From: Bacteroidales bacterium
GTDB lineage: Bacteria > Bacteroidota > Bacteroidia > Bacteroidales > JAADJA01
NCBI GenBank assembly: GCA_016783885.1
Contig: JADHVR010000005.1
Coordinates: 28,140-92,139 of the forward strand
Direction: 5' to 3'
DNA length: 64,000 nt
Shown: positions 1 to 18,120 of the stretch, piece by piece
Numbering within the stretch: the first letter of the stretch is position 1
How the letters are laid out: the number at the start of each line of letters is the position of its first letter
Made by a program: the position numbers and the translations under genes
The notes under the pieces: generated by a model
What the model saw: only the letters and a program-made list of their open reading frames with translations
Told to the model about the DNA's origin: nothing
The model's database searches: none

Positions 1-1008
1 ATTTGACTCGGCGCTGTCATAAAGACCCAGATACATTTGAACATTAGCTTTTCCTTCAATCTGGTTGGCAATATTGATCTGCCAGTCTTCTATTGAGTGA
101 GTTTTTCTTTCTTCTTTATTAAGCTTATTATATCTTTCTTGTGATTGATAAAATTTATCTAAGGATTTGTTGTGGTAATCTAATGCAGGTTCATACTTAC
201 CCCAATGATAATATGCCCGTGCAATATGACCTAAAAATTTAGCTTCAAAATAATCATTATCAATGGGTGTCAGCTCAAATTTATCAAGACTATCTAGTAC
301 TCTATTATTTGCTTCAATGGATTTTGCATAATAACCATGGCGGGTGTAATATCCTCCCAGTTTTTCAAGGTATCCAAATGCAGAAAATATATTGACATTC
401 GGACTTGTCTTAAAATGTGTAATTACCAGATTATATGTTTTTGTTAATTCTTTCAATTCGTTGCCGTAATCCCCAAATATATTATATATTCCTGCCAGCC
501 AGATATGGGCAGCAGCACGGGCAATCCATGTTTCATTGCCGGTTAATTCGGATAAAAGTCTTTGATAGTAAATAACAGCCGAGTCATATTTGTCAATATC
601 AGAATATCTCCTGCCTAATGTTAACCAAATTCTGTATTTTAAAAACCAGTCGGTTGTCGAATCGAAATATTGTTCTGAGAGCTTTAGGTACCCAATTGAC
701 TTTTCTATGGTGAATTCAGGGTTATAACTGCCGGCTAAAAGATAATAAGCATTTGATTTCCCTAAGTTATAATCAAGGCTGTCGGAAAGAGAAAGAGCTT
801 GTTTAGCGTAAGTAAATGCTTCCTTTGGAGACTTTTTAATCAATGCATTACACAGTTCATTCAACACATCCACTCTTTCAGTTCCGCTGACAGTATGAAG
901 ACAATTCCGCAGACTGTCGATGTTTTCTACGGGTTGTGGGGAAAGTTGTTTGCCCATAAGAAAACATGGCATAAGAAAAAAGAAGATATATATTGTAAAA
1001 CGAACCAT
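1..1008 (-). CDS. TPR-containing sensor protein, probably LytS-type histidine kinase (5' part; runs off window start)
   Basis: Not in the ORF track. Manual translation from ATG at 1008: MVRFTIYIFFFLMPCFLMGKQLSPQPVENIDSLRNCLHTVSGTERVDVLNELCNALIKKSPKEAFTYAKQALSLSDSLDYNLGKSNAY... This is a signal peptide plus the TPR-like periplasmic start typical of Bacteroidota sensor kinases, directly downstream of a LytTR regulator. The kinase domain is outside the window. Confidence 0.7.
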   Translation of the reverse strand, partial: MVRFTIYIFFFLMPCFLMGKQLSPQPVENIDSLRNCLHTVSGTERVDVLNELCNALIKKSPKEAFTYAKQALSLSDSLDYNLGKSNAYYLLAGSYNPEFTIEKSIGYLKLSEQYFDSTTDWFLKYRIWLTLGRRYSDIDKYDSAVIYYQRLLSELTGNETWIARAAAHIWLAGIYNIFGDYGNELKELTKTYNLVITHFKTSPNVNIFSAFGYLEKLGGYYTRHGYYAKSIEANNRVLDSLDKFELTPIDNDYFEAKFLGHIARAYYHWGKYEPALDYHNKSLDKFYQSQERYNKLNKEERKTHSIEDWQINIANQIEGKANVQMYLGLYDSAESN

Positions 1009-1099
1009 TTACTTTGTGTCATTTATGGTCATTAATTGTTTTTTCATGACAGCGAAGCGAATGACGGCGCAGCCAAATGACTATTTTTGACCTAATCAC

Positions 1100-1852
1100 T
1101 TATCCTGCGAGCCTCTCAAACATCTCCAGCAATTGTTCCCGCTTTCGTGAGGCAACCGGTACTTTGCATTCATTCTCCAGTACAACATAGCCCCCTTCTG
1201 TTTTTTCAAACCGATCGATGTGCCGCATATTTATCAAATAAGATTTATGCACCCTGAAAAAGCCTGTGTCTTTTAACAATTCGTCGTAGTCTTTTAAGGT
1301 ATTAGATACAATGATCTTTTTATCGTTCAACAGGTAGATCGCAGTATAACTGCCTTCGGATTCACAATAGTTGATATCATAAACCTTAATAAGATGGATG
1401 TTATCAAAGGTTTTTAAGATAATCTTTTTATTGGCTTTATCTTCCGATTGCAGATTTTCTGTCAGCGTATCAAGTTGTGTGTTAAAATCTATTTGTACAA
1501 GGTTTTCCGTTTTGCACACTGCATCATATAGCTCGTCCGGGTCAACCGGTTTTAGCAAATAGTCAATGGCGCTGAATTTAATGGCTTTGATGGCATACTG
1601 GTCGTAAGCCGTAATAAATATCACTTTAAAGTCGATGGGTTCAAGTTTTTTGAGCAGGTCGAACCCTGTACCGTCATTCATTTTGATATCTAACAGGACC
1701 AGGTCGGGATGGTACTTACGGATGGTTTTCACTCCACTTTCCACACCCTCGGCAGTAGCCACCAATTTAATATTGGGACAAAACCGGCTGACCATTTTCT
1801 CCAGGGTCTGTCGTATATGGGCCTCGTCATCGATGATGATGGTACGGAGCAT
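1100..1852 (-). CDS. LytTR-family two-component response regulator
   Basis: REC motifs IIIDDE, LLDI, FITAY, DYLLKP, and LytTR motif FFRVHKSYLIN. Start moved to MLRTII at 1852 because the longer N-terminus is translated intergenic repeat. Confidence 0.95.
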   Translation of the reverse strand: MLRTIIIDDEAHIRQTLEKMVSRFCPNIKLVATAEGVESGVKTIRKYHPDLVLLDIKMNDGTGFDLLKKLEPIDFKVIFITAYDQYAIKAIKFSAIDYLLKPVDPDELYDAVCKTENLVQIDFNTQLDTLTENLQSEDKANKKIILKTFDNIHLIKVYDINYCESEGSYTAIYLLNDKKIIVSNTLKDYDELLKDTGFFRVHKSYLINMRHIDRFEKTEGGYVVLENECKVPVASRKREQLLEMFERLAG

Positions 1853-1892
1853 ATTCAGGTCTGATTTTTTTGTAAAGATAGACATAATGGTT

Positions 1893-1992
1893 AAAATCCA
1901 AAAAACAAATAACAAAATCCAAAAAACAAACAACAAATTCCAAAGCACAAATAAATTCCAATAAACAAAAACCAAATTTCAAATATCAAAAA
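1893..1992. repeat. Degenerate short tandem array (AAA(A/T)TCCAAA/AAACAAA units, ~7-nt periodicity)
   Basis: aaaatccaaaaaacaaataac aaaatccaaaaaacaaacaac aaattccaaagcacaaat aaattccaataaacaaa... Confidence 0.8.
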
Positions 1993-2000
1993 CTACTTAT

Positions 2001-2177
2001 CGTAATTGCGAACTGAAGAGCTTGGCTTTTGTGTGGGCGTGAAACCCGTCCCTGCCCGTCCGGTCAGGCGGGCGAACCGGGCAGGGGCGGGCAATCTGTT
2101 TTAATTATAGTACTACCTTCAGAATAACAGATTGCTTCGCTCTTACGCATAAACCCATGCTTTGGCTCGCAATGACG
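2001..2177. repeat. Fold-back (REP/MITE-like) element, copy A, with nested GC-rich palindromic insert
   Basis: Terminal IR cgtaattgcga...tcgcaatgacg and inner IR gcaatctgtt...aacagattgc. Nearly identical to 10783-10932 apart from the inserted hairpin. Confidence 0.9.
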
Positions 2178-2196
2178 TTCATAAATTATTATTTAT

Positions 2197-2247
2197 TTAA
2201 AGTTTTATTATTTTCTTCGTTACAAATTTATTACCTGCCAACCTTCT
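2197..2247 (-). pseudogene. Orphan 3' tail of a T9SS CTD gene
   Basis: Reads RRLAGNKFVTKKIIKL*. Matches the CTD ends of neighbours (QLRVGNKMVTKKIIKVK*, RLQTGNEMVTKKVIKVK*) at DNA and protein level. An in-frame stop lies immediately upstream. Confidence 0.75.
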
Positions 2248-2302
2248 TTATACAAGGTTAATTTTTTAAATTAAAATAGCAGTTTCCACCATCCATTATA
2301 AT

Positions 2303-4294
2303 TCATTTGCGAGTAAGTACATTTTGAGTTATGTTGTTAATTATGCTTTTAGATAAAACTTTTTCGGCAAGCTTAACAAATAATTCTCTTTTTAGCACAG
2401 TGATTTGTTCCTTAATATCCTTTACGCTTCCACCAATTTTGCAAATTGAAGCCATTTTTCTCTTGTAATATTTTTCAATATCTTTATAATAATTGAATAT
2501 TTCATTTTCAAGTTGTTTTTTATTTTTATAGACCTCCAATTCTTTCTTCAGTTCTTTCATAAAATGTCTATTAAATCCTTTTTCATTCCTTAGGTATGGC
2601 TTTCTTAATTCTTGTTTATACTTTTTTTGCCATAATCTATTATTATAATCTTTTATCAGTGAAATTGTGATGTTTGGATTATCAAATAATAATCTTAAAA
2701 AATCAGTAGCAACTATGTTGGGTTCATGAAATAATGAATCATATACTATTATGCAACGATCCTGTAAGAATGCTAAAAAAGAATCTTTAAATCCTGAGTA
2801 GGCATCTTTTCCAATTATTTCAAAACTGAATTTTCGAAATTCATTCCTGTTGTATGATTCTTGATTTCCTCCAGGCAGATTAAAAGTTATACTATTGGAA
2901 CTGAATTCCTTTATATCTTCTGAGCCTGATTCCTTGGTAATCATTTTAACAGTTGCTTCATCATAACCTCCGTTTTGGGTTAGTTCGACAATTATTTCAT
3001 CTTTTATATACCCAAAATAGTATTCACACTCGGTAAGAGAACTTTTTCCCTCCGTATGCTTAACATAAAGTGCGTTAACCGGATGTTGATGTTTATAGTT
3101 ATCAGGAACTCTTTCGCATTCAACAATATTAGTTTTCATTAGGTTTTGAACGACTAAAAAAACATTAGCATAGTTTTCCCAACTAGCAGTTCCCCTTGAA
3201 AGTCGATCTCTACTTATTACCTCGTTTGCAAAAGCCGTAAAGGTATTTATTCTTGGTTGATTTACTTCTAAACTACAGCTTTTCTCAATATGATTTGAAA
3301 CAAGAGATAGTTGAAAATAGGAGGAAGTATTATCATTGAATGGTACATATAAAGTATAAATTTTCTCTCTAAAACCTTTTCCAAATTGTGGCCCATTATG
3401 TTCCTTGTGAGAACGTATATTAGTCGAACCAAAACAATCTGATAATTCTTGGAGATACAGGTTATTATCTTTTTCATAAAGAATAACCTGTCTATTATAA
3501 GTTTCCAGTGTCAGTTTTAAATCAGAAGCAATTGAGCCGTCTTTTGACATTTTAATTTCAAATGACCATGCCGGTATATCTTCATCAGAATTGTTCTTCA
3601 AAACAGTTGCTACATTTGATGATGATACGGCTAAATTGCATGAGTGTGTTATGTCTATCTCATGTGTAAAACCTCCAATGTTCCCATATTTTTGAAATCC
3701 AAGTATTTTAATTCTTTTACCGTTGCGGTCGGTTTTATATACCTTTTCATTCTTGAAATCAACTAATAGGTATGACTGAAAGTTCACTTTTTTCACATAC
3801 TTTTTTCCATCATTATAATTATGCCAGGCTCCTCGGTCTCCATAATAGGAACTTGGATTTTTACAATAACACCTTTTATAAGCAAAATTAGGGTCATAAG
3901 TGAAAATTTTTTGAATTCCATTAGAGCGGTTTCCTATTGCATAAGCAACTGCAAAGTGATCATTATGCAAACTCCAATCTTCTTGATCTATGTATAGTAA
4001 TGTAGGCTTGCCTGAGTCTATCCTTTCAGAAATCTTCTCAATTGCATGTTTCGTCTCGCCCCATCGTGATTCTTTTGTTGGATCTTTAAAAACAATGGAT
4101 GTTTGTGCATCCGATATTTCACTTTTGAAATCTCCCAATTCTGCTTCGCAATCAATTAGAACTCCATCATAGAATTTTCTAAGGGCAACAGCACACATCC
4201 CACCACAGTTGTAACCTGGTATTAATAAATGCCTACTCTTAAAATTGTCAAACGGAAATGAATGAACTTCCGGATTAAATAAACTTCTTTTCAT
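2303..4294 (-). CDS. Hypothetical protein with predicted N-terminal papain-like (Cys-His-Asp) domain and Lys-rich helical C-terminus
   Basis: Motifs FPFDN, CGGMC, DHFAVAY and IFTYDPN occur in papain-fold order. No signal peptide or CTD. AT-rich. Confidence 0.55.
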   Translation of the reverse strand: MKRSLFNPEVHSFPFDNFKSRHLLIPGYNCGGMCAVALRKFYDGVLIDCEAELGDFKSEISDAQTSIVFKDPTKESRWGETKHAIEKISERIDSGKPTLLYIDQEDWSLHNDHFAVAYAIGNRSNGIQKIFTYDPNFAYKRCYCKNPSSYYGDRGAWHNYNDGKKYVKKVNFQSYLLVDFKNEKVYKTDRNGKRIKILGFQKYGNIGGFTHEIDITHSCNLAVSSSNVATVLKNNSDEDIPAWSFEIKMSKDGSIASDLKLTLETYNRQVILYEKDNNLYLQELSDCFGSTNIRSHKEHNGPQFGKGFREKIYTLYVPFNDNTSSYFQLSLVSNHIEKSCSLEVNQPRINTFTAFANEVISRDRLSRGTASWENYANVFLVVQNLMKTNIVECERVPDNYKHQHPVNALYVKHTEGKSSLTECEYYFGYIKDEIIVELTQNGGYDEATVKMITKESGSEDIKEFSSNSITFNLPGGNQESYNRNEFRKFSFEIIGKDAYSGFKDSFLAFLQDRCIIVYDSLFHEPNIVATDFLRLLFDNPNITISLIKDYNNRLWQKKYKQELRKPYLRNEKGFNRHFMKELKKELEVYKNKKQLENEIFNYYKDIEKYYKRKMASICKIGGSVKDIKEQITVLKRELFVKLAEKVLSKSIINNITQNVLTRK

Positions 4295-4399
4295 AATAAT
4301 TATTTTTAAAGTTATTAAATTGTTTGTTTATAAAATGACTAATTCTATTTCTTAATTGTTATATGCAGGCAATTCATTACTGTTTTATTATTTTATTTA

Positions 4400-6058
4400 T
4401 CACCACACCATTACCTTTTTATAAAAATTCTTATTTCTACAGCTTACTTTTACACATAAGGGCTGTCTTTTCACATACAGTGGTATTGAATTCAGTCCGT
4501 CAATTAACCTGAAACTACCTAAACACTGTCCTGAAAGCGAATAGATCGAGACTTTAGCTTCTGCTCCCTGGTTTTGTGTCAGGTCAATGTTTACAGTTTT
4601 GCCTGATGACCAGATTTTAACATTCCCGGATTGAGCATTGCCCACCCCTGTACCGAGGAGGGTTGTAAGACCAATAATGTTAGAATAAGCTCCAGTATCT
4701 GTTGCATTGTATGACCTTAGCCTGAAAAAGTAATTTGTGTTCGAGCTCAGACCGGTTAAGGAATATGTAGTATCTAAACCTACATCCAGGTTTTCATATC
4801 CGGTTAAGAAATTTGTAAATTGTTCATTATAGGCTACATCAAGTAAATATCCCGTAGATATGCTTGCAGGTTGCCAGTTGGCATAAAAACTGCTATCGCT
4901 AATCTGGGATGCGGATTCTGCAAATACCATTAATCCTGCATATTCAAACATTTGAAGAACTATAGGATCTACATACTGTTCTGAATTGGTGGTAATAACA
5001 ATTCCGCTATTTTCTTCCTTGCAGAAATAAAAATGTGCTGCATAACCACCATCACTACCTCCATTATGGCCCCAAACGATCCTGTCTCCATAATCATCTC
5101 TTGTAAATAATCCTAAGCCGGTGGTACCATAGGAGAATGTCCAGGCTGGATTTTGTATTGTTGTCATGGAATCAACAGCATCACTTGTAAGGATATTCAT
5201 ATCATTATACATTCCTTCATTCGACAACATGATAACACAATTAGCAAGTTCCAGAGCTGTGCTGCGTAATGAAACCCCAGGATATGCGGGGTGCCCCAAA
5301 TGTTGATTCGGCACAAAATTACCTCCTGAATAACTATAGCCAATTGCTAGGTTATCAATATTCAATTCATCAAGAAACCATGCAGAGTTATTCATTTCCA
5401 ACGGTGTTAACAACGAATCACTTGCATACTGGTTAAAACTAATTCCCGTCAGTGGTTCAATAAGGTAACCATTTAATGCGATACCATAATTTGAATAGTG
5501 AAAAACTGTTCCCGGAAGAGCATTATAATAATTATTGTTGCTATAATATTCCCCACCGGGACAAAGGTAATTTTCCAGAAAGTAGTCAAGTGAAATTGTA
5601 GGATCACCTATTGTTACAAAATTATATATGTTCCCGTCATTTATACTGGAAGAATGCGACATTAGCATCCGTGCTGTTATACTGTCTGCATCGTTCCATG
5701 GATTTTCAATCTGAAAAGGCAGGAAATCATTGATATTCTGATCCAATCCCAAAAATTGTTTATCCCAAAGTTGCATTACACAAGCAGATGTCAAAGATTT
5801 TCCGATGGAAAAAACATTAAACAAGGTAGAATCATTTACCGGAATACTGTCCTCCAGATTCATAAAACCATAGTTGTTATTCCATACAACTGAGTCTCCA
5901 ATAATTATACTGGCAGATAATCCCGGTACATGAAATGTTTCCATTTTTTCCAGGATAAATTCATCCAGGTTGGCAAGCACACTGCTTTGATTTTGTCCGC
6001 TAAGGTTGACGATCATTGCGAACATTATTGCGATACTAATAAGTGTTAGTTTTTTCAT
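4400..6058 (-). CDS. Secreted serine hydrolase (beta-lactamase/AmpC-like family) + FN3 + divergent T9SS CTD
   Basis: Signal peptide; SxxK (SIGK), YSN and HNGG motifs; FN3 signature LTGLSSNTNYFFRLRSYN; C-terminal IYSLSGQ...KKVMVW. Confidence 0.88.
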   Translation of the reverse strand: MKKLTLISIAIMFAMIVNLSGQNQSSVLANLDEFILEKMETFHVPGLSASIIIGDSVVWNNNYGFMNLEDSIPVNDSTLFNVFSIGKSLTSACVMQLWDKQFLGLDQNINDFLPFQIENPWNDADSITARMLMSHSSSINDGNIYNFVTIGDPTISLDYFLENYLCPGGEYYSNNNYYNALPGTVFHYSNYGIALNGYLIEPLTGISFNQYASDSLLTPLEMNNSAWFLDELNIDNLAIGYSYSGGNFVPNQHLGHPAYPGVSLRSTALELANCVIMLSNEGMYNDMNILTSDAVDSMTTIQNPAWTFSYGTTGLGLFTRDDYGDRIVWGHNGGSDGGYAAHFYFCKEENSGIVITTNSEQYVDPIVLQMFEYAGLMVFAESASQISDSSFYANWQPASISTGYLLDVAYNEQFTNFLTGYENLDVGLDTTYSLTGLSSNTNYFFRLRSYNATDTGAYSNIIGLTTLLGTGVGNAQSGNVKIWSSGKTVNIDLTQNQGAEAKVSIYSLSGQCLGSFRLIDGLNSIPLYVKRQPLCVKVSCRNKNFYKKVMVW

Positions 6059-6073
6059 GATATTCTTGTTTTT

Positions 6074-6121
6074 ATCCCTCTCCTTACTCCCCTCCCAGTT
6101 GGGGAGGGGAAGGGGGTGGGG
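6074..6121. repeat. GC-rich intergenic palindrome (CCCTCTCC/CCCCTCCC...GGGAGGGG type), may also act as terminator or RNA stabiliser
   Basis: tcccctcccagttggggagggga core flanked by atccctctcc and gggggtgggg. Confidence 0.7.
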
Positions 6122-7426
6122 TTATTTAACTTTTATTATTTTCTTTGTTACCATTTTATTACCTACTCTTAACTGGCAAAAGAAAATGCCATCAGGCAAC
6201 GTCGAAGCATCAAATATAACTTGATGGCGTCCAGCCCTTTTGTTTCCTGTAAACAATAGTCCGACCTGTTGCCCCAGGTGATTCCAAATACTCAATTCGA
6301 TGGAACTGCTTTCAGTTAATTCGAATTGAATTGTTATATTGTTATTAAATGGGTTTGGATAATTCTTTAAATTGAATAGATCTTTACTTTCTGAAATTGG
6401 GATAATAGTTGTGTTAGAATCCGGGGACATCAGAAGCGAATCGATGAATATTAGAGCTCTTTGCTTAAATGCAAACGGCATTGAATGTCCTCCGTTATGC
6501 GAATAGAACTCATAAGGAAGATTCAATGCATCAAGCGTATCCTTCATAGCCAGATGAGCCGGGTATAGAAACAAAGCATCGTTACTTCCACACCCAAAAT
6601 AGATTCCTACACTATCGGAAGATGACAATTGGTGTATCAAATGGGCGATATTGTGGGTATCAGCTTTTGCTAATACAGTATCAATATAGTTACCATTTTC
6701 ATCTAAACAAAATTCAACGATCTGTGGATTGATGTAGGTTTGCGGGCTGTTTGTGTCCGGGGTAAAAGCACCACATATAGCAAATGCTCCTTGTGTGTAT
6801 ATACCTGTACTATAGAAATCATAGAAATATGAAGGTCCCGGTTGATTTTCCTGAAGGATCACCTGTCTGGTTTCATCCATATAATAAGGGTCCCTCATAT
6901 TGATTGGTGCAGTAGCATGAGCAGCCAGCACCCGGAACTTATCTTTGTGAAGTATCCCATACCTAAATGAACCGTATCCTCCCATGGACTGTCCCAATAA
7001 ACTTCTCCAATTTCGATGAGGCATGGCACGAAATGATGATTCCACCCAGGTGACCAAGTCATTAACCATATATTCTTCATAATTTCCCCATATAATTGAA
7101 TTTACATACCAACTGCCATAAAAAGGGTCAGGACTGTTATCGGCACAAACCATGATTAAAGGATCGATCGTTCCATTATTTATTAGTGTTTGTGTCGTGC
7201 TTAACATTTCACTCAAGCTATTCTGGTCATCAGTCCAGCCATGCAAATAATAAATTACCGGATAATACCAATCCGGGTTGTCATCGTAACCAGGCGGAAA
7301 ATATACATCATCCAACATAGTATCATTCAATGCCTCACTGTAAAAGGAAGTGTCGATTTTGTTGTACTGTGCAAACAGAAGGTTTGCTGTTATTAAAATT
7401 GCTGTAATTAGGGTAAGTTTTTTCAT
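6122..7426 (-). CDS. Secreted alpha/beta-hydrolase esterase with T9SS type A CTD
   Basis: Signal peptide, YPVIYYLHG, nucleophile elbow GQSMGG, catalytic His GGHS, CTD NYPNPF...GIFFCQL...TKKIIKVK. Confidence 0.9.
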   Translation of the reverse strand: MKKLTLITAILITANLLFAQYNKIDTSFYSEALNDTMLDDVYFPPGYDDNPDWYYPVIYYLHGWTDDQNSLSEMLSTTQTLINNGTIDPLIMVCADNSPDPFYGSWYVNSIIWGNYEEYMVNDLVTWVESSFRAMPHRNWRSLLGQSMGGYGSFRYGILHKDKFRVLAAHATAPINMRDPYYMDETRQVILQENQPGPSYFYDFYSTGIYTQGAFAICGAFTPDTNSPQTYINPQIVEFCLDENGNYIDTVLAKADTHNIAHLIHQLSSSDSVGIYFGCGSNDALFLYPAHLAMKDTLDALNLPYEFYSHNGGHSMPFAFKQRALIFIDSLLMSPDSNTTIIPISESKDLFNLKNYPNPFNNNITIQFELTESSSIELSIWNHLGQQVGLLFTGNKRAGRHQVIFDASTLPDGIFFCQLRVGNKMVTKKIIKVK

Positions 7427-7458
7427 GATATTCTTGTTTTTGTGTTTCCCGTCAGAGT

Positions 7459-10400
7459 TTATTTGGTTTTAATTATTTTCTTCGTTATCGTTTCATTCCC
7501 GACCTTAATCCTACAGAAATAAATGCCTGCCCGAAACTTACTCATATTTAATACAAAATCCTTTTGCCCGGGCTGGACATTGCAATATCTCCATGTTTTT
7601 AAACAAATGCCGGTTGTGTTGTAAATACAAATCTCTACTGAACTTTTTGATTGTAGATTCATACTTAAAACTGCCTTGTCATTGACCGGATTGGGGGAAA
7701 TTGACAGTTCAGGTTCAACAGATTCATTATTCACCGATGTTATGGAATCACAGGCATCCTCAACTTCCTGCTGGTTGTTGCAGCCGGGAGCGTTGTTTTC
7801 GATCATAACATTTGCATTCGGGCTTGCCAAATAACTGCAAATGCTTTCTGCAGTACAGTCAGATAATGAAGGGTTAAGAGTCAACATTAAACTATTAATA
7901 GAACCAGGATCTATATTGCTTAAATCTGCTATATTGGCAAGTGATCCATTTGCCTTGATCTCAATCGCTCCGTCAATTTCAGATAAATTGTCAATACCTG
8001 TCAGACTCGTCAGTTCGGGATTAAATTTTATATAAAGGCCTCCTTCAATCGAATACAGGTTGCTTAATCCGGATAAATCGGAAAGGTTTGGATTGCCCCC
8101 ACCAGGAGAAAATGTCCCTATAGTTAAACCATTATTAATAAAAGTCAAATTTTCAAGGCCAGTTAAGTTAGACAGTAGATCATTCTTATCAATAAAAAGA
8201 CCTCCCCCGATTAAATCAAGATTATCCAATCCAGTTAAATCCAACAGGGCATCATTATTATAGATATCAAGTGCTCCAGATAAGTATATCAGATTATTTA
8301 ACCCTATCAAACTCACCAGGAAAGGATTTCCGGAGATATCCAGGTCCCCGCCAAGAAAGGTTAAAACATCTAAGCCGTTCAAATTGGAAATATCATCTCC
8401 GCTGATCTTTATATCCCCATCAATTTCACTACAAAGCGGGTAGTTATATTGAAAACCATCAATCTCTGCCTGCGTATTAAATATAATACCCTCAACCAGG
8501 CAATGATATTCACATGCATCCTCTATTTCTTCCAGACTATTGCAACCTGCTGCGTTATTATATATTTGAACAGTAGCACCCGGGCTGGCTATATATTCAC
8601 AAACTTTCTGCACATCACATTTTGACAAAGAAGCATTTTCAAATATACTTAACTCATTTATTGAACCCGGTTCAATATTTTCTAAACCCCATAGATTTAT
8701 AATGGATGCATTACTTTCAATATGAATACTTCCGCCAATGGAAGTAATATTGATTAATCCTGAGAAACCATTCAGGGCATCATTACCTGCAATCCAAAGG
8801 TTTCCACCCAGGCTATTAATACTATTCAGTCCTGATAAACTGGTCAGCGTATTGTTTCCGGTAATTTCAAGGTTACCATCAATAGATATTAAAACATTCA
8901 AACCATTTAGATTTGAAATATCCTCTCCGCTTATCGTAACATTCCCTTTAATCCTGACACAATCCAGAAAATTAGACTGGAAGCTATCAATTTCAATCTG
9001 GGAATTAAATTCAATACCTTCTGGCAGACAGGAAAAAAAACAAGCTTCTTCAACCTCTTCAGGACTGTTGCAGCCGGTGGCATTGTCATGGATTTCAATG
9101 GTTCCACCTGGAGCAGTAAGGTAATCGCAAATGCTTTGGACTTCACACGTGGATAAGGTATCGTTATTTACAATATTAAGATTTCCTCCGATGGATGTTA
9201 AATTAGCAAGTCCGATTAAGTTGCTCAGCAATGGATTACCTCCCCCGCCTCCCATATCAACTACCCCAATTATTAAATCTTTTTCAATAGAATTAAGGCT
9301 TTCCATCCCTGTTAAACTGGTCAGGTCATTATTCGCATAAATCAATAGGTCTCTCCCGATGGAAGTCACATTGTCCAGCCCTGTTAAACTGGTCAGGTCA
9401 TTATTCGCATAAATCTTTAGGTCTCTCCCGATGGAAGTCACATTGTCCAGCCCTGTTAAACTGGTCAGGTCATTATTCGCATAAATCAATAGGTCTCTCC
9501 CGATGGAAGTCACATTGTTTAGTCCTGCTAAATTGTTCAGGCCATTATTCTCATAAATTAAAAGGTCTTCACCGATGGAAGTCACTGCGCTCAAACCAAG
9601 TAAATTTGTTAATCCGCTTCCTTTGATTTCAACTATCCCCTCTAAGTTTGTGCAGTTTGGGTAATTTACCTGAAAACTGTCAATATCTATTTGTTTAGTA
9701 AAATAGTAATTACCAAATGGCAGGCAAGATAGAACAATCCCACAGTTAGATGCAATTTCAGGTGGGCTATTGCATCCAGTTGCGTTATTGTAAATTGTAA
9801 CAGGGCCGCCTGGGTTAGCTAAGTAACCACAAACACTTTCTATTTCACAAAAAGATAAGTTGGAATTATTATAGATTTCTAAAAAGTCAATTGATTCAAA
9901 ATTAATGTTATCCAGTCCGGATAAGCTAGTAAGAGAATAGTTCCCATGAATAGTAATGCCTCCCTCGATAGAAGTTAAATTTTCAAGTTCAGCCAAACTG
10001 GAAAGTGATGTGGTAAAAATTTCAAGGTCTCCACCTATGAAGGTAAGGTTATCTAAGCCTATAAGACTGTTTAGGAAAAAACCACTTATTATCGCAACTC
10101 CTCCAGAAACAGACGTCAAATTATCCAGTCCGGTTAGGCTGTTCAAATAATCGTTGTTATAAATATAAAGGCCTCCACCAAGAGACGAAATATTCTCAAG
10201 ACCTGATAAATTAGTTAAAGCATCATTGCTATAAATAGTTATATTTCCTCCGATTAAAGTAAGATTTTCCAGCGCTGTCAGGCTAGCCAAAGCACTGTTA
10301 TGGAAAAGAGAAAGCGAACCTCCGATAGATGTGAGGTTCTCAAGCCCTGAAAGGCTTACAAGGTTTTGGTTTAAAAAGAAATGGAGATGTGATCCAATAG

Positions 10401-10761
10401 ATGTGAGACTTTCCAACCCAACCAGGTTAGTCAAAGAATTGCTACCTTGAATATCTAGGGTTCCCCCAATAGATGTGAGACTTTCCAACCCAACCAGGTT
10501 AGTCAAAGAATTGCTACTATGAATATATAGGGTTCCCCCAATAGCTGTTAATACGTTTAGACCATTTAAATTAGCTATACTATTCCCATAAACTTCAACA
10601 TCGCCTTCTATTTCAGTGCAATTGGGATAATTAATTTGAAAGCTGTCAATTTCTGCCTGGGTTTCAAATGTAATTCCATCGGGCAGGCAGGATTCATCAA
10701 TTTGAGCAAACAGTAAAATCTGGCTCAAAATTAAAATGATTGTAAATGTTAGTTTTTTCAT
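7459..10761 (-). CDS. Receptor-L-domain/LRR-like repeat protein, four Cys-capped modules, T9SS type A CTD
   Basis: Repeating LTSLxGLxNLTSIGGxLxI units. Four CLPxGIxFxxQxEIDxFQ...NNAxGCN modules. CTD ISPNP...GIYFCR...TKKIIKTK. Confidence 0.88.
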   Translation of the reverse strand: MKKLTFTIILILSQILLFAQIDESCLPDGITFETQAEIDSFQINYPNCTEIEGDVEVYGNSIANLNGLNVLTAIGGTLYIHSSNSLTNLVGLESLTSIGGTLDIQGSNSLTNLVGLESLTSIGSHLHFFLNQNLVSLSGLENLTSIGGSLSLFHNSALASLTALENLTLIGGNITIYSNDALTNLSGLENISSLGGGLYIYNNDYLNSLTGLDNLTSVSGGVAIISGFFLNSLIGLDNLTFIGGDLEIFTTSLSSLAELENLTSIEGGITIHGNYSLTSLSGLDNINFESIDFLEIYNNSNLSFCEIESVCGYLANPGGPVTIYNNATGCNSPPEIASNCGIVLSCLPFGNYYFTKQIDIDSFQVNYPNCTNLEGIVEIKGSGLTNLLGLSAVTSIGEDLLIYENNGLNNLAGLNNVTSIGRDLLIYANNDLTSLTGLDNVTSIGRDLKIYANNDLTSLTGLDNVTSIGRDLLIYANNDLTSLTGMESLNSIEKDLIIGVVDMGGGGGNPLLSNLIGLANLTSIGGNLNIVNNDTLSTCEVQSICDYLTAPGGTIEIHDNATGCNSPEEVEEACFFSCLPEGIEFNSQIEIDSFQSNFLDCVRIKGNVTISGEDISNLNGLNVLISIDGNLEITGNNTLTSLSGLNSINSLGGNLWIAGNDALNGFSGLINITSIGGSIHIESNASIINLWGLENIEPGSINELSIFENASLSKCDVQKVCEYIASPGATVQIYNNAAGCNSLEEIEDACEYHCLVEGIIFNTQAEIDGFQYNYPLCSEIDGDIKISGDDISNLNGLDVLTFLGGDLDISGNPFLVSLIGLNNLIYLSGALDIYNNDALLDLTGLDNLDLIGGGLFIDKNDLLSNLTGLENLTFINNGLTIGTFSPGGGNPNLSDLSGLSNLYSIEGGLYIKFNPELTSLTGIDNLSEIDGAIEIKANGSLANIADLSNIDPGSINSLMLTLNPSLSDCTAESICSYLASPNANVMIENNAPGCNNQQEVEDACDSITSVNNESVEPELSISPNPVNDKAVLSMNLQSKSSVEICIYNTTGICLKTWRYCNVQPGQKDFVLNMSKFRAGIYFCRIKVGNETITKKIIKTK
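9307..9518. repeat. Near-perfect intragenic 72-bp tandem repeat (x3)
   Basis: Unit ccctgttaaactggtcaggtcattattcgcataaatc..taggtctctcccgatggaagtcacattgt starts at 9307, 9379 and 9451. Confidence 0.95.
10394..10543. repeat. Intragenic 72-bp tandem repeat (x2)
   Basis: ccaatagatgtgagactttccaacccaaccaggttagtcaaagaattgcta at about 10394 and 10466. Confidence 0.9.
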
Positions 10762-10782
10762 GATGTTTTGTTTTTAATTTCC

Positions 10783-10932
10783 CGTCATTGCGAACTGAAG
10801 GGCTTGACTTTTGTGAGGGCGTGAAGCCTGTCTGCCGACAGGCAGGCAATCTGTTTTAATTATGGGGCTACCTTCAGAATAACAGATTGCTTCGCTCTTA
10901 CGCATAAACCCAAGCTATGGCTCGCAATGACG
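10783..10932. repeat. Fold-back (REP/MITE-like) element, copy B
   Basis: Perfect 11-bp terminal IR cgtcattgcga/tcgcaatgacg. Inner IR gaag[insert]caatctgtt/aacagattgcttc, with insert cctgtctgccgacaggcagg. Confidence 0.9.
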
Positions 10933-10940
10933 TTCATAAT

Positions 10941-13067
10941 TTATTTAACTTTAATTACTTTCTTTGTTACCATTTCGTTTCCAGTTTGCAGCCGGCAGAA
11001 ATAAATGCCTTCAGGCAAATGACCTAAATTGCTATGAATGGAATGATGGCCGGGTGTTAAGGTTTTTTTTATCAAATATTCCAGTTTCTGTCCTACAACA
11101 TCGAAAATCTGGATGGTAACATTTTCCCCGGATTGCAGATTAAACCTGATTTGAACATCAGAAGTAACCGGGTTGGGAATAATTTGAAAATTGAAATCCC
11201 TGGTATTCTTCGATAATCCTGTATTTATATCATACCAGGCTTCCCATCCCTCTCCCTGGACGCTGTTATTCGACAAAAAGGCTAGAAACATTTTTCCACT
11301 CGGAGATGTAACCGGACCGGGCGGTTCTTCATAATACCCACTTATCTCAGCAATCAGTTCCTGCGAAACACCATCAATAATTTTTAATACATCATTTTCC
11401 GCTTCGGTATCAAAATAATTGAAATGTAAAGTAAGTGGATCGGTAATTCCCGGATCTATGATCCATGTGCAGGTAGTCGAGTTGTAGTAATAAAAAGAAC
11501 CACTTCCATCATTAATGGTTGCAGCCGGTTCTGTTAATTGAGTCATTCCACTGCACCAATCGGGTCGTTCACAATTGTAGTTGAGGTAAAATCCCGGAGC
11601 TGTGTTTGCGTCATCGGTAATAAACTCAATAAAAACTTTATTACCTGTGGATTCAATGTCACCCGGAATAGTACTTCCGCTTAGTTCAACCAAAAGGGGA
11701 GCAGTATTATCTTCGCCATCGTATATATAAAGCCTGTCGCCATCATTGAACAGATCAAATCGCTTCACCATAATTACGATGTTAGTTACAGAATCATATT
11801 CAGTTTGGGGATCAATGAGCCACGAAGCCTGGGTGTTGTTCAGGTAATTATGAATTGGCCCGCTGCCATCGGTAATCGAACCTTCAAAACTCAAACAAGT
11901 ATCCATTCCCGAACAGTACTGCGGATAAGTGAACTGCAAAGAATCCGGACAAATGTTCGGAACCATGTCCTGGTCATAATTATATCCCTGGATATTGTCG
12001 ATGGTATAATAGCCATTGCTTTGGCCACCCCATCCCAGGTTAAAATGGAAATGATCTTCATCCTGATAGCCATCGCACACAAAGGCATGGCCCGAACCCG
12101 ATGATGGATTCCCTCCATAATAGACAGGGAATTTACTATCAAGCGAAGTTGTTAACAGTTCCTTCCATTGTTCAACGGGCATATTATCCCTGTAATACCA
12201 ATCGTACGGCTGTAATTTAAGATAATATGCAATTGAATCATCGGTTGAAGGAAATGAGCCTCCACCGCTAAAATTCATATGAATACCAACGGCAATATGA
12301 TATGAGTATTCAGCAATGGCCAGATTTACAGTTTGCGGCTCATCTACCATTTCACTATACCTGTACCATGTATTTTCGAAGTCAGCTGATTGTACTCCTG
12401 TTGCAGGATAGACTGTGGAAATATAGGAAGTATAACCCTGACCATGATCCGGCCATCTCCAATAATACGTAATTTGAGCTATGGCAGTAGCTACGCATCC
12501 AACCCAGGTATGACCACCCGAACCTCCCGTGGGTGTTTCGGGGCAATAGTAATTATAAGGCCAACCCTGGTCCCATTCAGTGGTAAGCAGTGGCTCAACA
12601 GCTTTGCTGCTCTTCACTGGTTTGTTTAATTCAAAACCATCATTTAAATAATAAGCCCACTGGTCAGCTGTTTTAATTTCAGGTGTTAGCTTTTTTTGTC
12701 TTACATAACGAACCTGTTCTTCAAATTGGCCGAACCACCATTTAACATTAGGTGGTTGGTTATCTGCAACAAAATTGTGTTTAAAGGAATAGCCCAAAAC
12801 CGGGCTTAAGCAATCATCGGCAGGAACAATTACAAATCCGCCTTTATTCACATGGAAAACATAATAAAAGTTTTGGATTCCATCGGATTCCACATGGGTA
12901 GAATGAATGGCTAACTGATCATACAAAACCGGCCCTTCGAACAGGTTGTATTTCTCAAAGTAGAAATTCAAGGCGACTTTTTTGGCTTGTTGAATAGTTA
13001 CATTTTCAGCAAAGAGATTAAAACTGAAAACGATTGAAATGACGAAAAGAAAAATTTTTGATTTCAT
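10941..13067 (-). CDS. C10 family (streptopain/SpeB-like) cysteine peptidase with propeptide, two CUB domains and T9SS CTD
   Basis: WDQ, GCVATA (Cys), GHAFVCDG (His), HFNLGWGG. Two DGSG...Y.N...WxI CUB-like repeats. CTD IPNP...GIYFCRL...KKVIKVK. Confidence 0.93.
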   Translation of the reverse strand: MKSKIFLFVISIVFSFNLFAENVTIQQAKKVALNFYFEKYNLFEGPVLYDQLAIHSTHVESDGIQNFYYVFHVNKGGFVIVPADDCLSPVLGYSFKHNFVADNQPPNVKWWFGQFEEQVRYVRQKKLTPEIKTADQWAYYLNDGFELNKPVKSSKAVEPLLTTEWDQGWPYNYYCPETPTGGSGGHTWVGCVATAIAQITYYWRWPDHGQGYTSYISTVYPATGVQSADFENTWYRYSEMVDEPQTVNLAIAEYSYHIAVGIHMNFSGGGSFPSTDDSIAYYLKLQPYDWYYRDNMPVEQWKELLTTSLDSKFPVYYGGNPSSGSGHAFVCDGYQDEDHFHFNLGWGGQSNGYYTIDNIQGYNYDQDMVPNICPDSLQFTYPQYCSGMDTCLSFEGSITDGSGPIHNYLNNTQASWLIDPQTEYDSVTNIVIMVKRFDLFNDGDRLYIYDGEDNTAPLLVELSGSTIPGDIESTGNKVFIEFITDDANTAPGFYLNYNCERPDWCSGMTQLTEPAATINDGSGSFYYYNSTTCTWIIDPGITDPLTLHFNYFDTEAENDVLKIIDGVSQELIAEISGYYEEPPGPVTSPSGKMFLAFLSNNSVQGEGWEAWYDINTGLSKNTRDFNFQIIPNPVTSDVQIRFNLQSGENVTIQIFDVVGQKLEYLIKKTLTPGHHSIHSNLGHLPEGIYFCRLQTGNEMVTKKVIKVK

Positions 13068-13143
13068 AACCTAATGTTTTTTGATTTATCAATAAATATC
13101 TAAAATGTAAAAATAAGAAATCTGAAAGGCGAAAATGAAACAG

Positions 13144-13196
13144 ATTTGTAAACGCCGGGGAAAAATTTGTGAACGATGAGGTTTATTTGACGAACG
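13144..13196 (-). promoter_or_regulatory. Three direct repeats with 21-bp period (putative LytTR binding boxes) upstream of the C10 gene
   Basis: atttgtaaacg, atttgtgaacg and tttgacgaacg end at 13154, 13175 and 13196. This spacing matches known LytTR (AgrA-type) operator geometry. Confidence 0.7.
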
Positions 13197-13330
13197 TATG
13201 TAAATATATTAAAAGTTCGATGTTTGATTTATAATGTAAAAGGGATTATGTTTTTAAAAGAGACTTACGAATTTTAGTGTTTAATAAAAATATACTATAT
13301 TTGGGATATGAAAAAAAACACAACCTGATT

Positions 13331-16300
13331 ATGATAACAATAAATAAATCACGAAATCTCTGGATAATCCTTATCACTATTGCTCTGATAGGAATTTCCT
13401 ATTTACTTTACCTGAATGTTTATGTCAGTAATAATGAGAACAGAATGATAAAAACCCGGTACAGGGTTTTAAGCCAGATAGGAAAAAACATCACTGAGAA
13501 AAAAGATGGTTATTATAAAAATGCTAAATATTTTAAGGATTTAGTTCAGAGCGATGTTGAGGAAAAAATTGATTCACTTATAAAACTCATACAGTCACAA
13601 AAAAGATCTAATAAGGATGAGGTCAGTCAGAAAATAAGCAAACAGGATAGTTTGAGGGAAGTATTTGATATAATAAAAGAAAGATCATCCAGTATAAATA
13701 AGAATATAGATATAGATTACGTGATAAAGAAAGACCCGTATTCTATCAGCTTTATCGAAGAACAAAGTCTGTTCGAATTACCAATTCACCTGTCATTAAA
13801 AACAAGCTTCGATGTATTTATGGAACCATTGCTCCGTGATGATGTTTTTGACGGATTAATCATCATCCGTGATTCAAGCGTTGCTTATAATTCGTTAAAT
13901 ACCAATATGCTGCTCAGCCCTGTTGATACTTTATTTATTAAAATCAAAGATTTAAAATCCGGCTTAATAAAAGAGATAGTGAACATTCCGGGCAGTGAAG
14001 GACAAAGCATAAATTATATTTATTCTGCTTCACTTACTGAAATAGAAATCTTAAACACTAAATATAAGTTATTCCTTGAACCGGTACACATCAGCCAGGA
14101 TGAATGGTGGTATTTGGGTGGCTTATTAGAAGAAAAAACCTATAATTCGGAAAAAAGAAGATTAAGCCCGGGAATCATTATATTTCTCTCTCTTGTTTTA
14201 TTAATTATTCTGTTAGGAATGCCTGTCATCAAACTTATTGTTATGGGCAGTAAGGAGCATCTTCATACTAATAATATAACCTCTTCGGCTCTGTCAGTTG
14301 TTTTAGGCTCAGCTTTCGTGCTGCTCTTTATTTTATATTTTTCAATGAACAGAGTTAATTCACGGAATAATGACAAGCAATTGAAGCAATTGGCTGATAC
14401 TATATCAGATAGTTTTATTAAAGAGTTAAAAACAATCTATTCACAACTTGAGACTTACGATTCTGATTTTAATATTACATATCAGGATGATACTATTATT
14501 AATAAAATATTAACAAAACAAAATAATGATGATAACATAAAGCAATTATATCCGGAAATCTATTCATTTTTAGATTATGCTTTCTGGGCTGATAGTGATG
14601 GACAACAAAAAATGGAATTAAATCCTTTTAAAAAGAAAGGAAAATTAATTTCAATTGCGAAAAGAAACTATTTTAAAAACAAGGATAAATGGTTATTACC
14701 CGGAGATAAAAGAGATTCACTGTTTATGTTAGAATCAATCAGTTCTTTGTCATCAGGAATAAATAAAGCAGCCATATCAAAAAGAAGCAATAAAGATACA
14801 CTTGAAGTAATAGCTATAACAACACGGCTACATTCGGTAATCGACCCGGTATTACCAAAGGATTACGGTTTCTGTTTAATTGATGAAACAGGTAAGGTAT
14901 GGTTTCATTCGGATAAAAACCGTAATATGCATGAAAATTTTATTGATGAAAGCAATAAAAATAATTTTTTAAAAGCAGCTATTTACAGCCATATAGCAAA
15001 ACCCATTAATTTGTATTATTATAACCGGTTGAACAGGGCTTATATCAAACCTTTCGAAAATATTCCATTATTTTTATTAACTTTTTACGACAAAAAGCTC
15101 AACCAATCTGCGGGTGCGCAGATTATTACCTTTACATCCCTTCTTATTACCACTTTGTTTTTTCTCCTCTTTATTCAAATCATTTTATTGTTACTGATTA
15201 ATCGGAAACAGTCCGGTTCTGACAATATAAACTTAATTATGGACTGGTCGAGGCCAAAGGTTAAATACAAAGATATTTACATAAAATTAATATTATATAA
15301 TGCTTCTGTTTTTGTTATGCTTATGGCTTTTATGTATTTTACAAAAGGTTATATAGCTGTCTTTATGATTTTTATTGCCATCCCTGTTATTTTCGCCAAT
15401 TCATACTCAGTTATAAATGAGATTTCCTTAAATAAATTATTTTCCGATCGGTTTATTCGGGCTACGGCAATTTTAGTTTTTTTGCTGAATATTGCTGCAT
15501 TTATTATCGTGAAAACACAATATGAAAATTTTATTTTACTATTGGTATTTCAGCTTGTGCTGCTTTTAATGCCGCTTTCTTATAAAATGACTCGAGAGGA
15601 ATTTTTTGAAAGATATCAGGCTGAAAAATATTTTAAGAAATATATTTTATTCTTGTTTTCTTTATTATTAATAATATCAATAATACCTACACTCAAATTT
15701 TTTGAAGTTGCTTATGACCAGGAAAAAATAATCAGGCTGAAACATCACCAGCTTTATCTTACTAAGAAAAAAGAAAACAGAAATCTTGAGTTGAGTAAAT
15801 ATTATGAATCAATTGATGACCCTAAAAATGAAATACAGGAAAAACGTACAAAACTGGGGGTTTATACAAATTTCTTTCAGTCAGCCCGTTTTTCTGATAC
15901 AATTGTAATTAAGAATGATGCCAAAAAAAATGGTTATCAAAATTATAACTATTGGGACAGCTTAGTTTGTTTTATCCGTCCATTTCTCGATCCTTCGGTC
16001 ATTGAAAATAAATACCTTGTATTTCCGGCTTCTTCCGATACTTCATGGAGTTGGACGAATAATAAAAACAAATTACAATTAAAATATACATCGCTAACTG
16101 AAAATATTGATAGTTTAAAACCGATAAACAGATTTGTAGTTTCCGATACTTTTGACTCTAATTTTTTAATACCTTTTGTTGGTTTACAAAACCGGCAGTT
16201 ATTACAAGTTGTTTTTAACCTGATATTTTGGATAATAGTTGGAGCTTTATTATTTTTCTTCTTTAAATTAATAAATTTCGGAAGCGAAAGAATTTATAGC

Positions 16301-17416: not shown

Positions 17417-17743
17417 TGAGATAAGAGTTTTTAAGGTTTAAAGTTGAGTCCATTCCGAAAAATCATTTTTAATTAATCATAATCACCTTACCAAACCGGT
17501 TTTTTGACCTTAACCCAAAAATCGCTCAAAAAGAACGTATCTCTTTCTGTCCGAAGGCTTTAGCCGATAAAAATACGTAATATTACACATTGATTTTACG
17601 TATATTCCCGCATGCAAATTGAGTATTTTCCCTATTTTTTATTCTATTTTGTGTGTTTAACTTTGTTGCGTAATTTGAAATTAAATATAACTGATTATTC
17701 AATATCATAAGAAAAGGAGGAAAAACAAAAAAAAATTGTTTAA

Positions 17744-18027: not shown

Positions 18028-18041
18028 ACCTCTTCTCTTCC

Positions 18042-18072
18042 CCAAGCTCCCTCCAAACGGAGGGGAGTTTGG
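18042..18072 (+). terminator. Hairpin after the pseudogene stop
   Basis: ccaagctccctcc-aaac-ggaggggagtttgg imperfect stem-loop. Confidence 0.5.
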
Positions 18073-18120
18073 TATGGATATAATAAATTTAGTATCTTTG
18101 TAAAATCACTTAAAATAATA

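Follow-up and report, generated by a model that had tools for sequence, protein, structure and literature searches.

The subject of this report is a locus of co-oriented cargo genes of the type IX secretion system (T9SS) with a linked LytTR two-component system, located at positions 1-13300 of a 64,000-nucleotide stretch of Bacteroidales DNA (the window; G000:C136:28140-92139, in a genome of 4.15 Mb and 155 contigs). The closest described systems are the KLIKK protease arrays of Tannerella forsythia, which likewise are clustered T9SS cargo genes with unrelated catalytic domains, a shared signal peptide and a shared C-terminal extension, and in which the C-terminal sorting domain (CTD) ends in a stereotyped basic/hydrophobic motif (PMC4404884). 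The authors of that work propose that pre-existing enzymes were fused to common signal peptide and C-terminal extension sequences (Ksiazek et al. 2015, PMC4404884). An earlier annotation of the window from its letters (the first-pass annotation) knew of no named system of this kind; judged from the passages of PMC4404884, the KLIKK arrays are a named analogue. The likeness is incomplete. KLIKK CTDs are described in these passages as nearly identical, whereas those of our locus are 36-40% identical outside the tail, and the passages do not describe the LytTR system, the phased boxes and the post-stop palindrome that are present here (PMC4404884). According to PMC9890683, each KLIKK gene follows the gene of an inhibitor lipoprotein (potempin), whereas the gaps of 32-179 nt between the genes here contain no open reading frame (ORF). 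On present comparison we regard the locus as a KLIKK-like cargo array coupled to a LytTR two-component module, which would have arisen largely by ordinary modular gene-family evolution.

The regulatory part of the locus resembles the LytTR operons agr, com, blp, pln and fsr, mainly of Firmicutes, in which regulator and kinase lie in or beside the controlled operon, the product is secreted and the signal sensed is a secreted peptide encoded at the locus itself. Our locus shares with them the position of regulator and kinase at the operon, the direct repeats about 21 bp apart just upstream of the promoter and the secreted output. It differs in the large extracytoplasmic TPR sensor domain, in that no small peptide gene is evident, and in its outputs, which are large T9SS enzymes and leucine-rich repeat (LRR) proteins. 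Literature searches, restricted to titles, found no title that links LytTR regulators to T9SS cargo arrays.

Short dispersed intergenic palindromes are known as repetitive extragenic palindromic (REP) sequences, bacterial interspersed mosaic elements (BIMEs) and miniature inverted-repeat transposable elements (MITEs); they often follow stop codons in operons, and REP hairpins stabilise the upstream mRNA. The fold-back element of our locus is dispersed, intergenic, palindromic and multi-copy like these, with copies that tend to be alike within a genome. Unlike them it is composite and low in copy number (about 6 here), has no REP-associated tyrosine transposase (RAYT) beside any copy and has no Rfam match. 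Integron arrays and the orphan modules of polymorphic toxins (Rhs, and contact-dependent inhibition or CDI) also combine co-oriented genes, palindromic or conserved junctions and orphan 3' fragments. The likeness of our locus to them lies in its co-oriented genes with conserved junctions and in orphan 3' fragments left by displacement. Here, in contrast, no integrase is encoded on the contig and the genes are paralogous at their ends and have their own leaders; compared with Rhs/CDI, the orphan pieces are remnants of 12-19 codons and not stored functional modules.

The reading that we favour, with a probability of roughly 60%, is that the locus is a regulated operon belonging to a clade-specific family of paralogous modules, the ends of its genes having been inherited by descent. 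The comparative evidence for this reading is presented below.

Gene content of the locus

Seven co-oriented genes on the minus strand occupy positions 1-13300, and the four genes for secreted proteins with stereotyped ends that the first-pass annotation had placed here were correct in coordinates and motifs. The features of the array, in the order of transcription and with domain calls from Pfam and NCBIfam, are as follows.

13068-13276, minus strand: conserved promoter region before c10, with three 21-bp-phased boxes (13148-13196) and then a TAnnTTTA-like element
10941-13067, minus strand: cargo 1, c10; Spi inhibitor-like propeptide, C10 peptidase, CUB domains, type A CTD, end TKKVIKVK-stop
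10762-10940, minus strand: junction 1; fold-back copy 1 (about 10781-10936) and leader AAAAACAAAACATC
7459-10761, minus strand: cargo 2, lrr; 1100 aa, start MKKLT, four Receptor-L/LRR modules, type A CTD, end TKKIIKTK-stop
7427-7458, minus strand: junction 2; fold-back stub TGACGGGAAA (7445-7454) and the same leader as junction 3
6122-7426, minus strand: cargo 3, esterase; start MKKLT, type A CTD, end TKKIIKVK-stop
6059-6121, minus strand: junction 3; GC hairpin (6074-6121) and leader AAAAACAAGAATATC
4400-6058, minus strand: cargo 4, serine hydrolase of beta-lactamase fold; start MKKLT, fn3 domain, weak atypical CTD
4377-4415, minus strand: second canonical tail, GNGVVINKIIKQ-stop, out of frame and overlapping the stop of the beta-lactamase-fold gene; followed by TAATGAAT, a stub of the fold-back start
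2303-4294, minus strand: 663-aa gene without family, CTD match or visible signal peptide; low G+C (28-33%)
2197-2253, minus strand: orphan CTD tail, ..RRLAGNKFVTKKIIKL-stop (AGNKFVTKKIIKL-stop / GNKFVTKKIIKL-stop), stop at 2197, with an in-frame stop 16 codons upstream
about 1997-2181, no strand assigned: fold-back copy 2, a composite palindrome behind the orphan tail, with a nested GC-rich palindrome at about 2046-2090
1886-1985, minus strand: 21-nt tandem repeat of TTGGAATTT-type units, immediately ahead of the LytTR start codon
1100-1885, minus strand: LytTR response regulator with REC and LytTR domains, 261 aa from the ATG at 1885
1-1008, minus strand: 5' part of the sensor gene, which extends beyond the window start; whole protein 836 aa (L001:1-2508)

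The CTDs of c10, lrr and esterase score 48.6, 40.0 and 45.0 bits with TIGR04183 (cut-off 23) and 50.0, 42.2 and 48.6 bits with PF18962 (cut-off 27), and by these sorting domains above the curated cut-offs the three proteins are predicted type A cargo of the T9SS. All four proteins had been taken as T9SS cargo; for the fourth, the Pfam and NCBIfam searches gave no CTD match, and a hidden Markov model (HMM) derived from this genome and run with filters off gave a weak match of 12.9 bits. All resistance-family cut-offs are far above what this beta-lactamase-fold gene scores, its best value being 59 bits against a cut-off of 415. As judged by eye, the cargo N-termini consist of MKK or MKS, a hydrophobic stretch and then A-Q or A-E. 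The T9SS machinery is represented in the genome by four matches to TIGR03519 (PorP/SprF family) over the cut-off, and a genome search with PF18962 gave at least 150 matches (150 of 248 candidates scored), all of those listed being over the cut-off. The intergenic gaps between the cargo genes (179, 32 and 63 nt) have no ORF inside.

The 663-aa gene shows no N-terminal hydrophobic signal-like stretch by eye and no CTD match, and is therefore not considered a cargo gene. Homologues of its protein number 8 among 5.8 billion proteins, all unnamed and at 31-40% identity, and the DNA search of relatives listed no match to its coordinates, the gene being absent from their loci. We read it as an apparently recent insertion that displaced a cargo gene. 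The orphan CTD tail, behind which fold-back copy 2 lies as the first-pass annotation had it, is best read as the remnant of that displaced gene, probably of LRR type, because an LRR-type gene ending in TKKIIKL-stop abuts the LytTR gene in most species. Likewise, the out-of-frame tail at 4377-4415 is read as a probable rearrangement scar. The N-terminal 200 residues or so of the 663-aa protein gave a weak structural lead to papain-like/Peptidase_C39_2 proteins.

The LytTR system and its putative operators

As had been proposed, a LytTR regulator and a TPR sensor close the array. The regulator of 261 aa scores 76 bits for REC and 75.2 bits for LytTR, and the sensor has a hydrophobic N-terminus, TPR repeats, a His_kinase domain (PF06580, 83.3 bits) and HATPase_c. 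The proposal that phased boxes bracket the array also held, with three boxes upstream of c10 and a 21-nt tandem repeat (1892-1969) at the other end.

The boxes upstream of c10, CGTTCGTCAAAT, CGTTCACAAAT and CGTTTACAAAT, lie 21 bp apart and follow the pattern CGTTyryCAAAT; the conserved ATCTGTTTCAT and the TAnnTTTA-like element come after them. The triple box is unique in the genome, and a looser two-box pattern has 5 matches as compared to 12 in a reversed-sequence control. The box block is kept upstream of c10 in 6 genomes, including before a c10 that is 48% identical and before the c10 remnant described below, and most of the paralogous modules inspected have similar phased boxes ahead of their first cargo gene, which is a different one. 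Of 9 upstream regions for which sequence was available, 7 gave box pairs in an automatic test, and the other two have partial boxes by eye. LytTR operators are direct repeats about 21 bp apart upstream of the promoter. The phased boxes are a putative LytTR operator to which the regulator would bind. The idea of an inducible secretome is well supported comparatively, by the regulator pair and by the boxes kept in 6 promoters and in most paralogous modules.

Tandem Repeats Finder counts 3-4 copies of the TTGGAATTT-type repeat, and a manual count gives 4-5 units here and 2 in relatives. The repeat precedes the LytTR gene also in two of the three distant metagenome-assembled genomes (MAGs) described below, and could be a second operator or an internal promoter. 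The TTG start at 1975 chosen by the ORF finder falls inside these repeats. A scan for sigma-70 promoters and intrinsic terminators, which is unsuited to Bacteroidota promoters, stayed at the level of shuffled sequence (50 against 52.4, and 9 against 8.5).

About 16 LytTR regulators with at least 150 aligned residues are encoded in the genome, and one of them, the regulator of this locus, belongs to the module family. This is why the motifs of the locus look unique in this genome. The 836-aa sensor is orthologous to the 873- and 885-aa sensors of two relatives (G009 and G022; L016 and L018) and not to the sensors of 670-690 aa encoded behind the closest LytTR orthologues. Since orthology of the sensor thus differs from that of the regulator, the regulator-sensor pairing seems to shuffle as well. 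A cleaved CTD tail as the ligand of the TPR sensor was set aside, the sensors being very divergent or of different types and the tail constant.

Related modules in other genomes

A DNA search over 41 genomes, G000 included, was tabulated for ORFs of at least 200 aa and for shorter ones with a match. Orthologous genes within the genus are about 70-76% identical in DNA. Each species has one to several modules of this type. The genus modules consist of 1-5 co-oriented cargo genes with CTDs ending in ..GNxxxTKKIIK(V/L/I/T)K-stop, followed by LytTR and then by 1-2 TPR sensors, and one genome (G004) has at least five of them (L013, L020, L021). Gene orders related to that of our locus are given below.

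This locus: c10, lrr, esterase, hydrolase, 663-aa gene, orphan tail, LytTR
G014: c10, hydrolase+LRR chimera, esterase+LRR chimera, LytTR
G007: 105-aa c10 remnant, esterase, hydrolase+LRR, LRR, LytTR
G008: content c10 and esterase+LRR
G009: c10 about 1.1 kb from the sensor

Between species the number and order of cargo genes vary, with c10 staying beside the promoter and LytTR mostly at the 3' end. This much had been expected of an alignment across relatives, together with breakpoints in the shared ends; the breakpoints lie mostly between enzyme and LRR module instead. In the three more distant MAGs, whose LytTR is 58-79% identical, the order of cargo, LytTR and sensor is kept, and neither fold-back nor leader was found. 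When 80 loci were fetched with the LytTR protein (71 of them with at least 1.5 kb upstream), a CTD gene directly upstream of LytTR, that is with its end within 700 nt on the same strand, was present in 3/3 loci with LytTR at least 58% identical and in 0/77 others.

The junctions of 14 loci (L001, L009-L021) were surveyed by regular expression. The 27 TKKIIK-type tails in them are followed directly by a fold-back in 17 cases, 15 complete copies found by the expression and 2 atypical ones by eye (the long copy of our locus and a copy whose right end has decayed). The leader AAAAACAA(G/A)AA(C/T)ATC precedes ATGAAAAA at 13/13 cargo-to-cargo junctions. It also precedes the esterase gene G004b est, a first gene directly behind the promoter, and therefore belongs to the 5' end of the gene and not to the junction. 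At several junctions leader and tail are conserved without the palindrome. The tail is conserved at the protein level, its codons varying synonymously for Thr (ACA 12, ACG 11) and Ile (ATA 13, ATT 13); Lys-Lys is AAG AAA in 24/27.

Sorting-domain tree and breakpoints of shuffling

The 25 CTD-bearing ORFs present in L001 and L009-L021 were all entered, with their final 85 residues, into a maximum-likelihood tree, the set being without the duplicate loci L002-L008 and the distant L042-L044. The CTDs group by neighbouring domain and not by locus. Those of c10 form one clade (95/93), the 105-aa remnant included, and this remnant is therefore a c10 with an internal deletion. Another clade (96/96) unites the CTDs that follow an LRR module, whatever the N-terminal enzyme, which points to the LRR module with its CTD as the moving unit. 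The three CTDs of our locus fall into three different groups of the tree. In the documented chimeras, which join an esterase or a hydrolase to an LRR module or lack this module, the break falls between the enzyme and the LRR part. Tree and breakpoints together argue against CTD conversion across the locus and against the CTD end as the usual breakpoint.

Shared starts and tails

Three genes of the locus (lrr, esterase and hydrolase) start with MKKLT behind AAAAACAA(G/A)A(A/C)(T)ATC, as the first-pass annotation had pointed out, and this degenerate leader/start motif has 3 matches in the genome, every one at this locus. The exact 26-mer AAAAACAAGAATATCATGAAAAAACT has 2 matches, both here, and still 2 genome-wide when up to 3 mismatches are allowed; ATGAAAAAA alone occurs 663 times in the genome. 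The tail TKK(I/V)IK(V/T)K-stop is found in 3 of the 224 CTD-bearing ORFs of the genome, which were collected with an iterative HMM of our own over all stop-to-stop ORFs of at least 100 aa, and all three are at this locus. Within this genome, start motif and tail are thus confined to the locus, the tail not being scattered over the 224 CTD ORFs.

The near-identical CTD DNA that had been reported for the three local cargo genes holds for the last 8-14 codons, to which the stereotyped stretch is limited; the whole CTDs are 36-40% identical in protein over 78-80 aa. They are nevertheless mutual best matches in the genome, at 58.5-69.3 bits as compared to 61.6 bits for the 99th percentile of all CTD pairs.

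Fold-back palindromes

A palindrome had been proposed for each junction, and a fold-back, a stub and a hairpin were indeed found, the full fold-back being present at 2 of the 4 post-cargo junctions. Copy 1 folds at -59.8 kcal/mol (z = -6.05, 0/200 shuffles as good) and copy 2, behind the orphan tail, has z = -4.38 (0/200), while the GC hairpin at 6074-6121 is weaker (z = -1.94, 11/200). The two local fold-backs are 93% identical over 105 nt, and BLASTN finds no further full copy of that sequence in the genome. The wider fold-back family has about 6 members in this genome, 4 full and 2 half copies. The element is built of two inverted half-units of about 45-55 nt, each bounded by GTCATTGCGA and GAAGCAATCT, with an AT-rich loop between them, and half-units combine freely among copies. 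An alignment of 18 copies was collected by regular expression from the genus loci, setting aside one decayed copy and those off the pattern; the outer stem ACGTCATTGCGA / TCGCAATGACG and the inner stem GCAATCT / AGATTGC are invariant in it, and the arms are variable and of several types.

A strict pattern was found in 19 of 29 genus genomes, at 0-8 per genome, and in 8 genomes of a set of 251 from the phylum; long copies, among them the two of our locus, escape this pattern. Of 20 other copies, placed by reading of the gene tables, 11 lie behind non-cargo genes, 6 behind CTD genes that have other tails and 3 between a truncated and a full LytTR gene; all copies inspected are intergenic or post-stop. 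Copies within a genome have a mean identity of 77% (12 pairs) as compared to 68% between genomes (141 pairs). At junction 2, the stub is consistent with a deletion between short TGA(A)C repeats and shows no clear target duplication.

Searches for a known relative or a mobilising enzyme were negative. An Rfam scan of positions 1-20000 at E up to 1 gave two chance-level matches and none for the fold-back, and the literature matches to the palindrome box were all unrelated primers. None of the 7 Y1_Tnp matches in the genome is on a contig with the fold-back box, no RAYT-type transposase lies beside any copy, and none of the 15 matches to tyrosine recombinases (PF00589) in the genome is on the 99-kb contig C136. 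We read the fold-back as a REP/MITE-like palindrome that has probably been carried along and homogenised in these arrays. Its role is most likely that of an intercistronic RNA hairpin, a stabiliser or a partial terminator.

The nested palindrome at 2046-2090 (CTGCCCGTCCGGTCAGGCGGGC type) occurs 6 times in the genome at up to 4 mismatches and also in a junction of G022, and is a second small palindromic repeat family. At three further loci, L025 (G007:C46), L028 (G008:C145) and L041 (G044:C19), a truncated REC-only gene (about 139 aa) is followed by 1-4 fold-backs and a full LytTR gene; this module type sits downstream of cargo ending in ..EKMVEVGK(I/M)(V/I)K(Q/E).

Population data

Runs of metagenomic DNA that match the locus are labelled marine, aquatic and estuary; the runs listed for the locus included none of RNA. 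Contigs of 4 DNA metagenome runs from 4 studies, two of which may be the source of the assembly, cover positions 1-16000 with 0-1 base differences; the stretches 2128-9336 and 10883-16000 are bridged, and the contigs end at the two fold-backs. An assembly artefact was rejected, the arrangement being reproduced by independent contigs. Candidate joints with sides of 21-39 letters (90% likeness) were rejected as variants because they fall in LRR repeats and palindromes, and the contigs of the four runs hold no credible alternative cargo arrangement. As the strains are nearly identical, this lack of variants is weak evidence. A metagenome scan with the degenerate junction 26-mer gave 4 stretches, one the start of a distant LRR gene and three in unrelated AT-rich contigs, and no close strains.

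Proposed mechanism and alternative explanations

In the mechanism that we propose, a module would begin with a promoter that carries phased direct repeats and would further contain 1-5 cargo genes, a LytTR regulator and a TPR/LytS-type histidine kinase. The extracytoplasmic TPR sensor would phosphorylate the regulator, which would then bind the three 21-bp-phased CGTTyAy boxes and turn on the cargo genes, the regulator pair itself being expressed by read-through or from an internal promoter. The cargo would be exported by Sec through the MKKLT signal peptide and then by the T9SS through the type A CTD. The family feature at the 5' end would be an A-rich translation leader with the signal-peptide start, that at the 3' end the tail GNxxxTKKIIKxK of a CTD subfamily, joined in the genus by a REP/MITE-like composite palindrome directly after the stop codon. 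The family diversifies by domain shuffling (enzyme, with or without an LRR module, and CTD), by deletions and insertions and by recombination at repeats. Such events account for the palindrome stub and the orphan tails as well as for cargo sets that differ between species, and no dedicated exchange machinery is needed.

The first-pass annotation had gone further and proposed a re-loadable locus in which the shared gene ends serve as homology arms. A dedicated re-loadable cassette mechanism is not supported, in view of the CTD tree, the enzyme/LRR breakpoints, the generic nature of the fold-back and a contig without a tyrosine recombinase match.

Several observations weigh against the regulated-operon reading. 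The exact 26-nt leader/start is common to two junctions of this genome only, the two scars (the orphan tail and the out-of-frame tail at 4377-4415) are located exactly at CTD tails, and the signal peptide MKKLTLITAILI.. is found on the esterase here and on two unrelated passengers elsewhere (three genomes). In G007, two fold-back copies of one array are 96% identical despite divergent adjoining CTDs, and another pair is a mosaic, 97% identical in the left half and 73% in the right. The junctions may therefore be prone to recombination. RNAalifold found no informative covariation in the 18 copies, and because the stems of the palindrome never vary, covariation neither supports nor rejects an RNA structure. 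The fetched loci L016 and L018 have no LytTR match beside the orthologous sensor, and the type of sensor paired with LytTR differs between species; the module is thus not fully fixed. Co-transcription, induction, the RNA role of the palindrome and LytTR-box binding are themselves inferred.

The recombination signals raise the question of whether the whole junction unit (tail, palindrome, leader and signal-peptide start) could be a portable homology region needing no recombinase, through which RecA-type recombination, gene conversion or unequal crossing-over would move, duplicate and delete entire cargo genes within and between LytTR modules, so that the secretome behind a constant promoter and regulator would be re-loaded. 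The cargo sets and orders that differ between the fixed c10/promoter end and the mostly fixed LytTR end would agree with such swapping, as would the confinement of the junction motifs to this module family, the palindromes that are near-identical or mosaic by halves within an array, the same signal peptide on unrelated passengers, the scars at tails, and the 105-aa gene of one relative, which joins a c10 start to a CTD. We nevertheless find it unlikely. This 105-aa gene carries a c10-type CTD and is an internal deletion of c10, CTDs track the neighbouring domain and the local three fall into three groups, and the breakpoint of most documented shuffles is located between enzyme and LRR module. 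The DNA shared exactly is also short (26 nt at starts and about 24-40 nt at tails, in CTDs of 36-40% identity), ordinary gene turnover can explain the differences between species of about 70-76% DNA identity, and no credible structural variant appeared in the contigs of the 4 metagenome runs. If it were true, sensor/regulator pairs could be re-equipped with different secreted tool sets over short evolutionary times, and the mosaic near-identical palindromes and tail scars would be the footprints of the process.

Best placed among the alternatives, if still unlikely, is a mobile palindromic element of MITE or REP type that inserted repeatedly after stop codons, the remaining likeness being common conservation of signal peptides and CTDs with no functional link between palindrome, cargo and regulator. 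The fold-back is a low-copy family dispersed in genus and phylum, its copies are more alike within than between genomes, and the genome has 7 Y1 transposase matches, none of which, however, is on a contig with the fold-back box. Repeated insertion explains the spacers only, and not the promoter boxes or the LytTR link; leader and tail are kept at several junctions where the palindrome is missing; and 17 of 27 tails carry the element at the same position, suggesting co-inheritance or strong targeting. An integron-like or CALIN-like array (a cluster of attC sites lacking an integrase), with the fold-backs as attC-type sites of a recombinase encoded elsewhere, we hold to be highly improbable. Imperfect palindromes of 110-180 nt directly after the stops of successive co-oriented genes would fit it, and two sequence-invariant stems are what protein recognition would lead one to expect, but to our knowledge the ends ACGTCATTGCGA / TCGCAATGACG do not resemble attC core sites. 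The element moreover occurs at only 2 of 4 post-cargo junctions here, follows non-cargo genes at 11 of 20 other loci and is missing from distant modules that keep the cargo-LytTR order; no PF00589 match of the 15 is on the contig; and the genes have their own leaders and belong to one family, unlike the promoterless unrelated cassettes of integrons.

Taken as a regulated operon of a module family, the locus defines a clade-specific unit of a LytTR system with variable secreted enzymes and LRR proteins, recognisable by operator, CTD tail and intercistronic palindrome. With at least 224 candidate genes in the 4.1 Mb of this genome, T9SS repertoires are large, and their regulation and diversification are poorly understood. 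The locus offers a testable regulon of sensor, regulator, boxes and cargo, its natural series of enzyme/LRR/CTD chimeras shows the assembly of secreted proteins, and it is a possible case of concerted evolution at operon junctions. Its value is limited in that the organism is uncultured and the mechanism comes from comparative inference.

Neighbouring gene and other cargo arrays of the genome

The divergent ORF at 13277-17416 (plus strand, 1379 aa) uses the same intergenic region as the c10 promoter. It has no Pfam family and a sub-threshold NCBIfam match to the HpsJ family (21.6 bits, cut-off 60).

Elsewhere in the genome, 98 of the 224 CTD ORFs belong to co-oriented runs of at least two, and there are 17 runs with three or more. 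Several of the runs have tails of their own, examples being (V/I)TKKMIVE and (L/I)RKI(V/A)V(E/K), each three times. In 39 of the 224 cases the best-matching CTD is that of a neighbour no more than 15 kb away. It is thus a general mode by which T9SS cargo evolves in this genome that unrelated passengers carry CTDs of a family specific to their array. Outside the window, at C104:81287-93890, 8 co-oriented cargo genes end in LKGEKVF(R/W/K)(G/S)K(M/I/L)VV(K/R)-stop, and most pairs of them are alike only in about the last 76 aa, at 60-90% identity. This array is a stronger case of the same phenomenon, with no LytTR gene adjacent to it.

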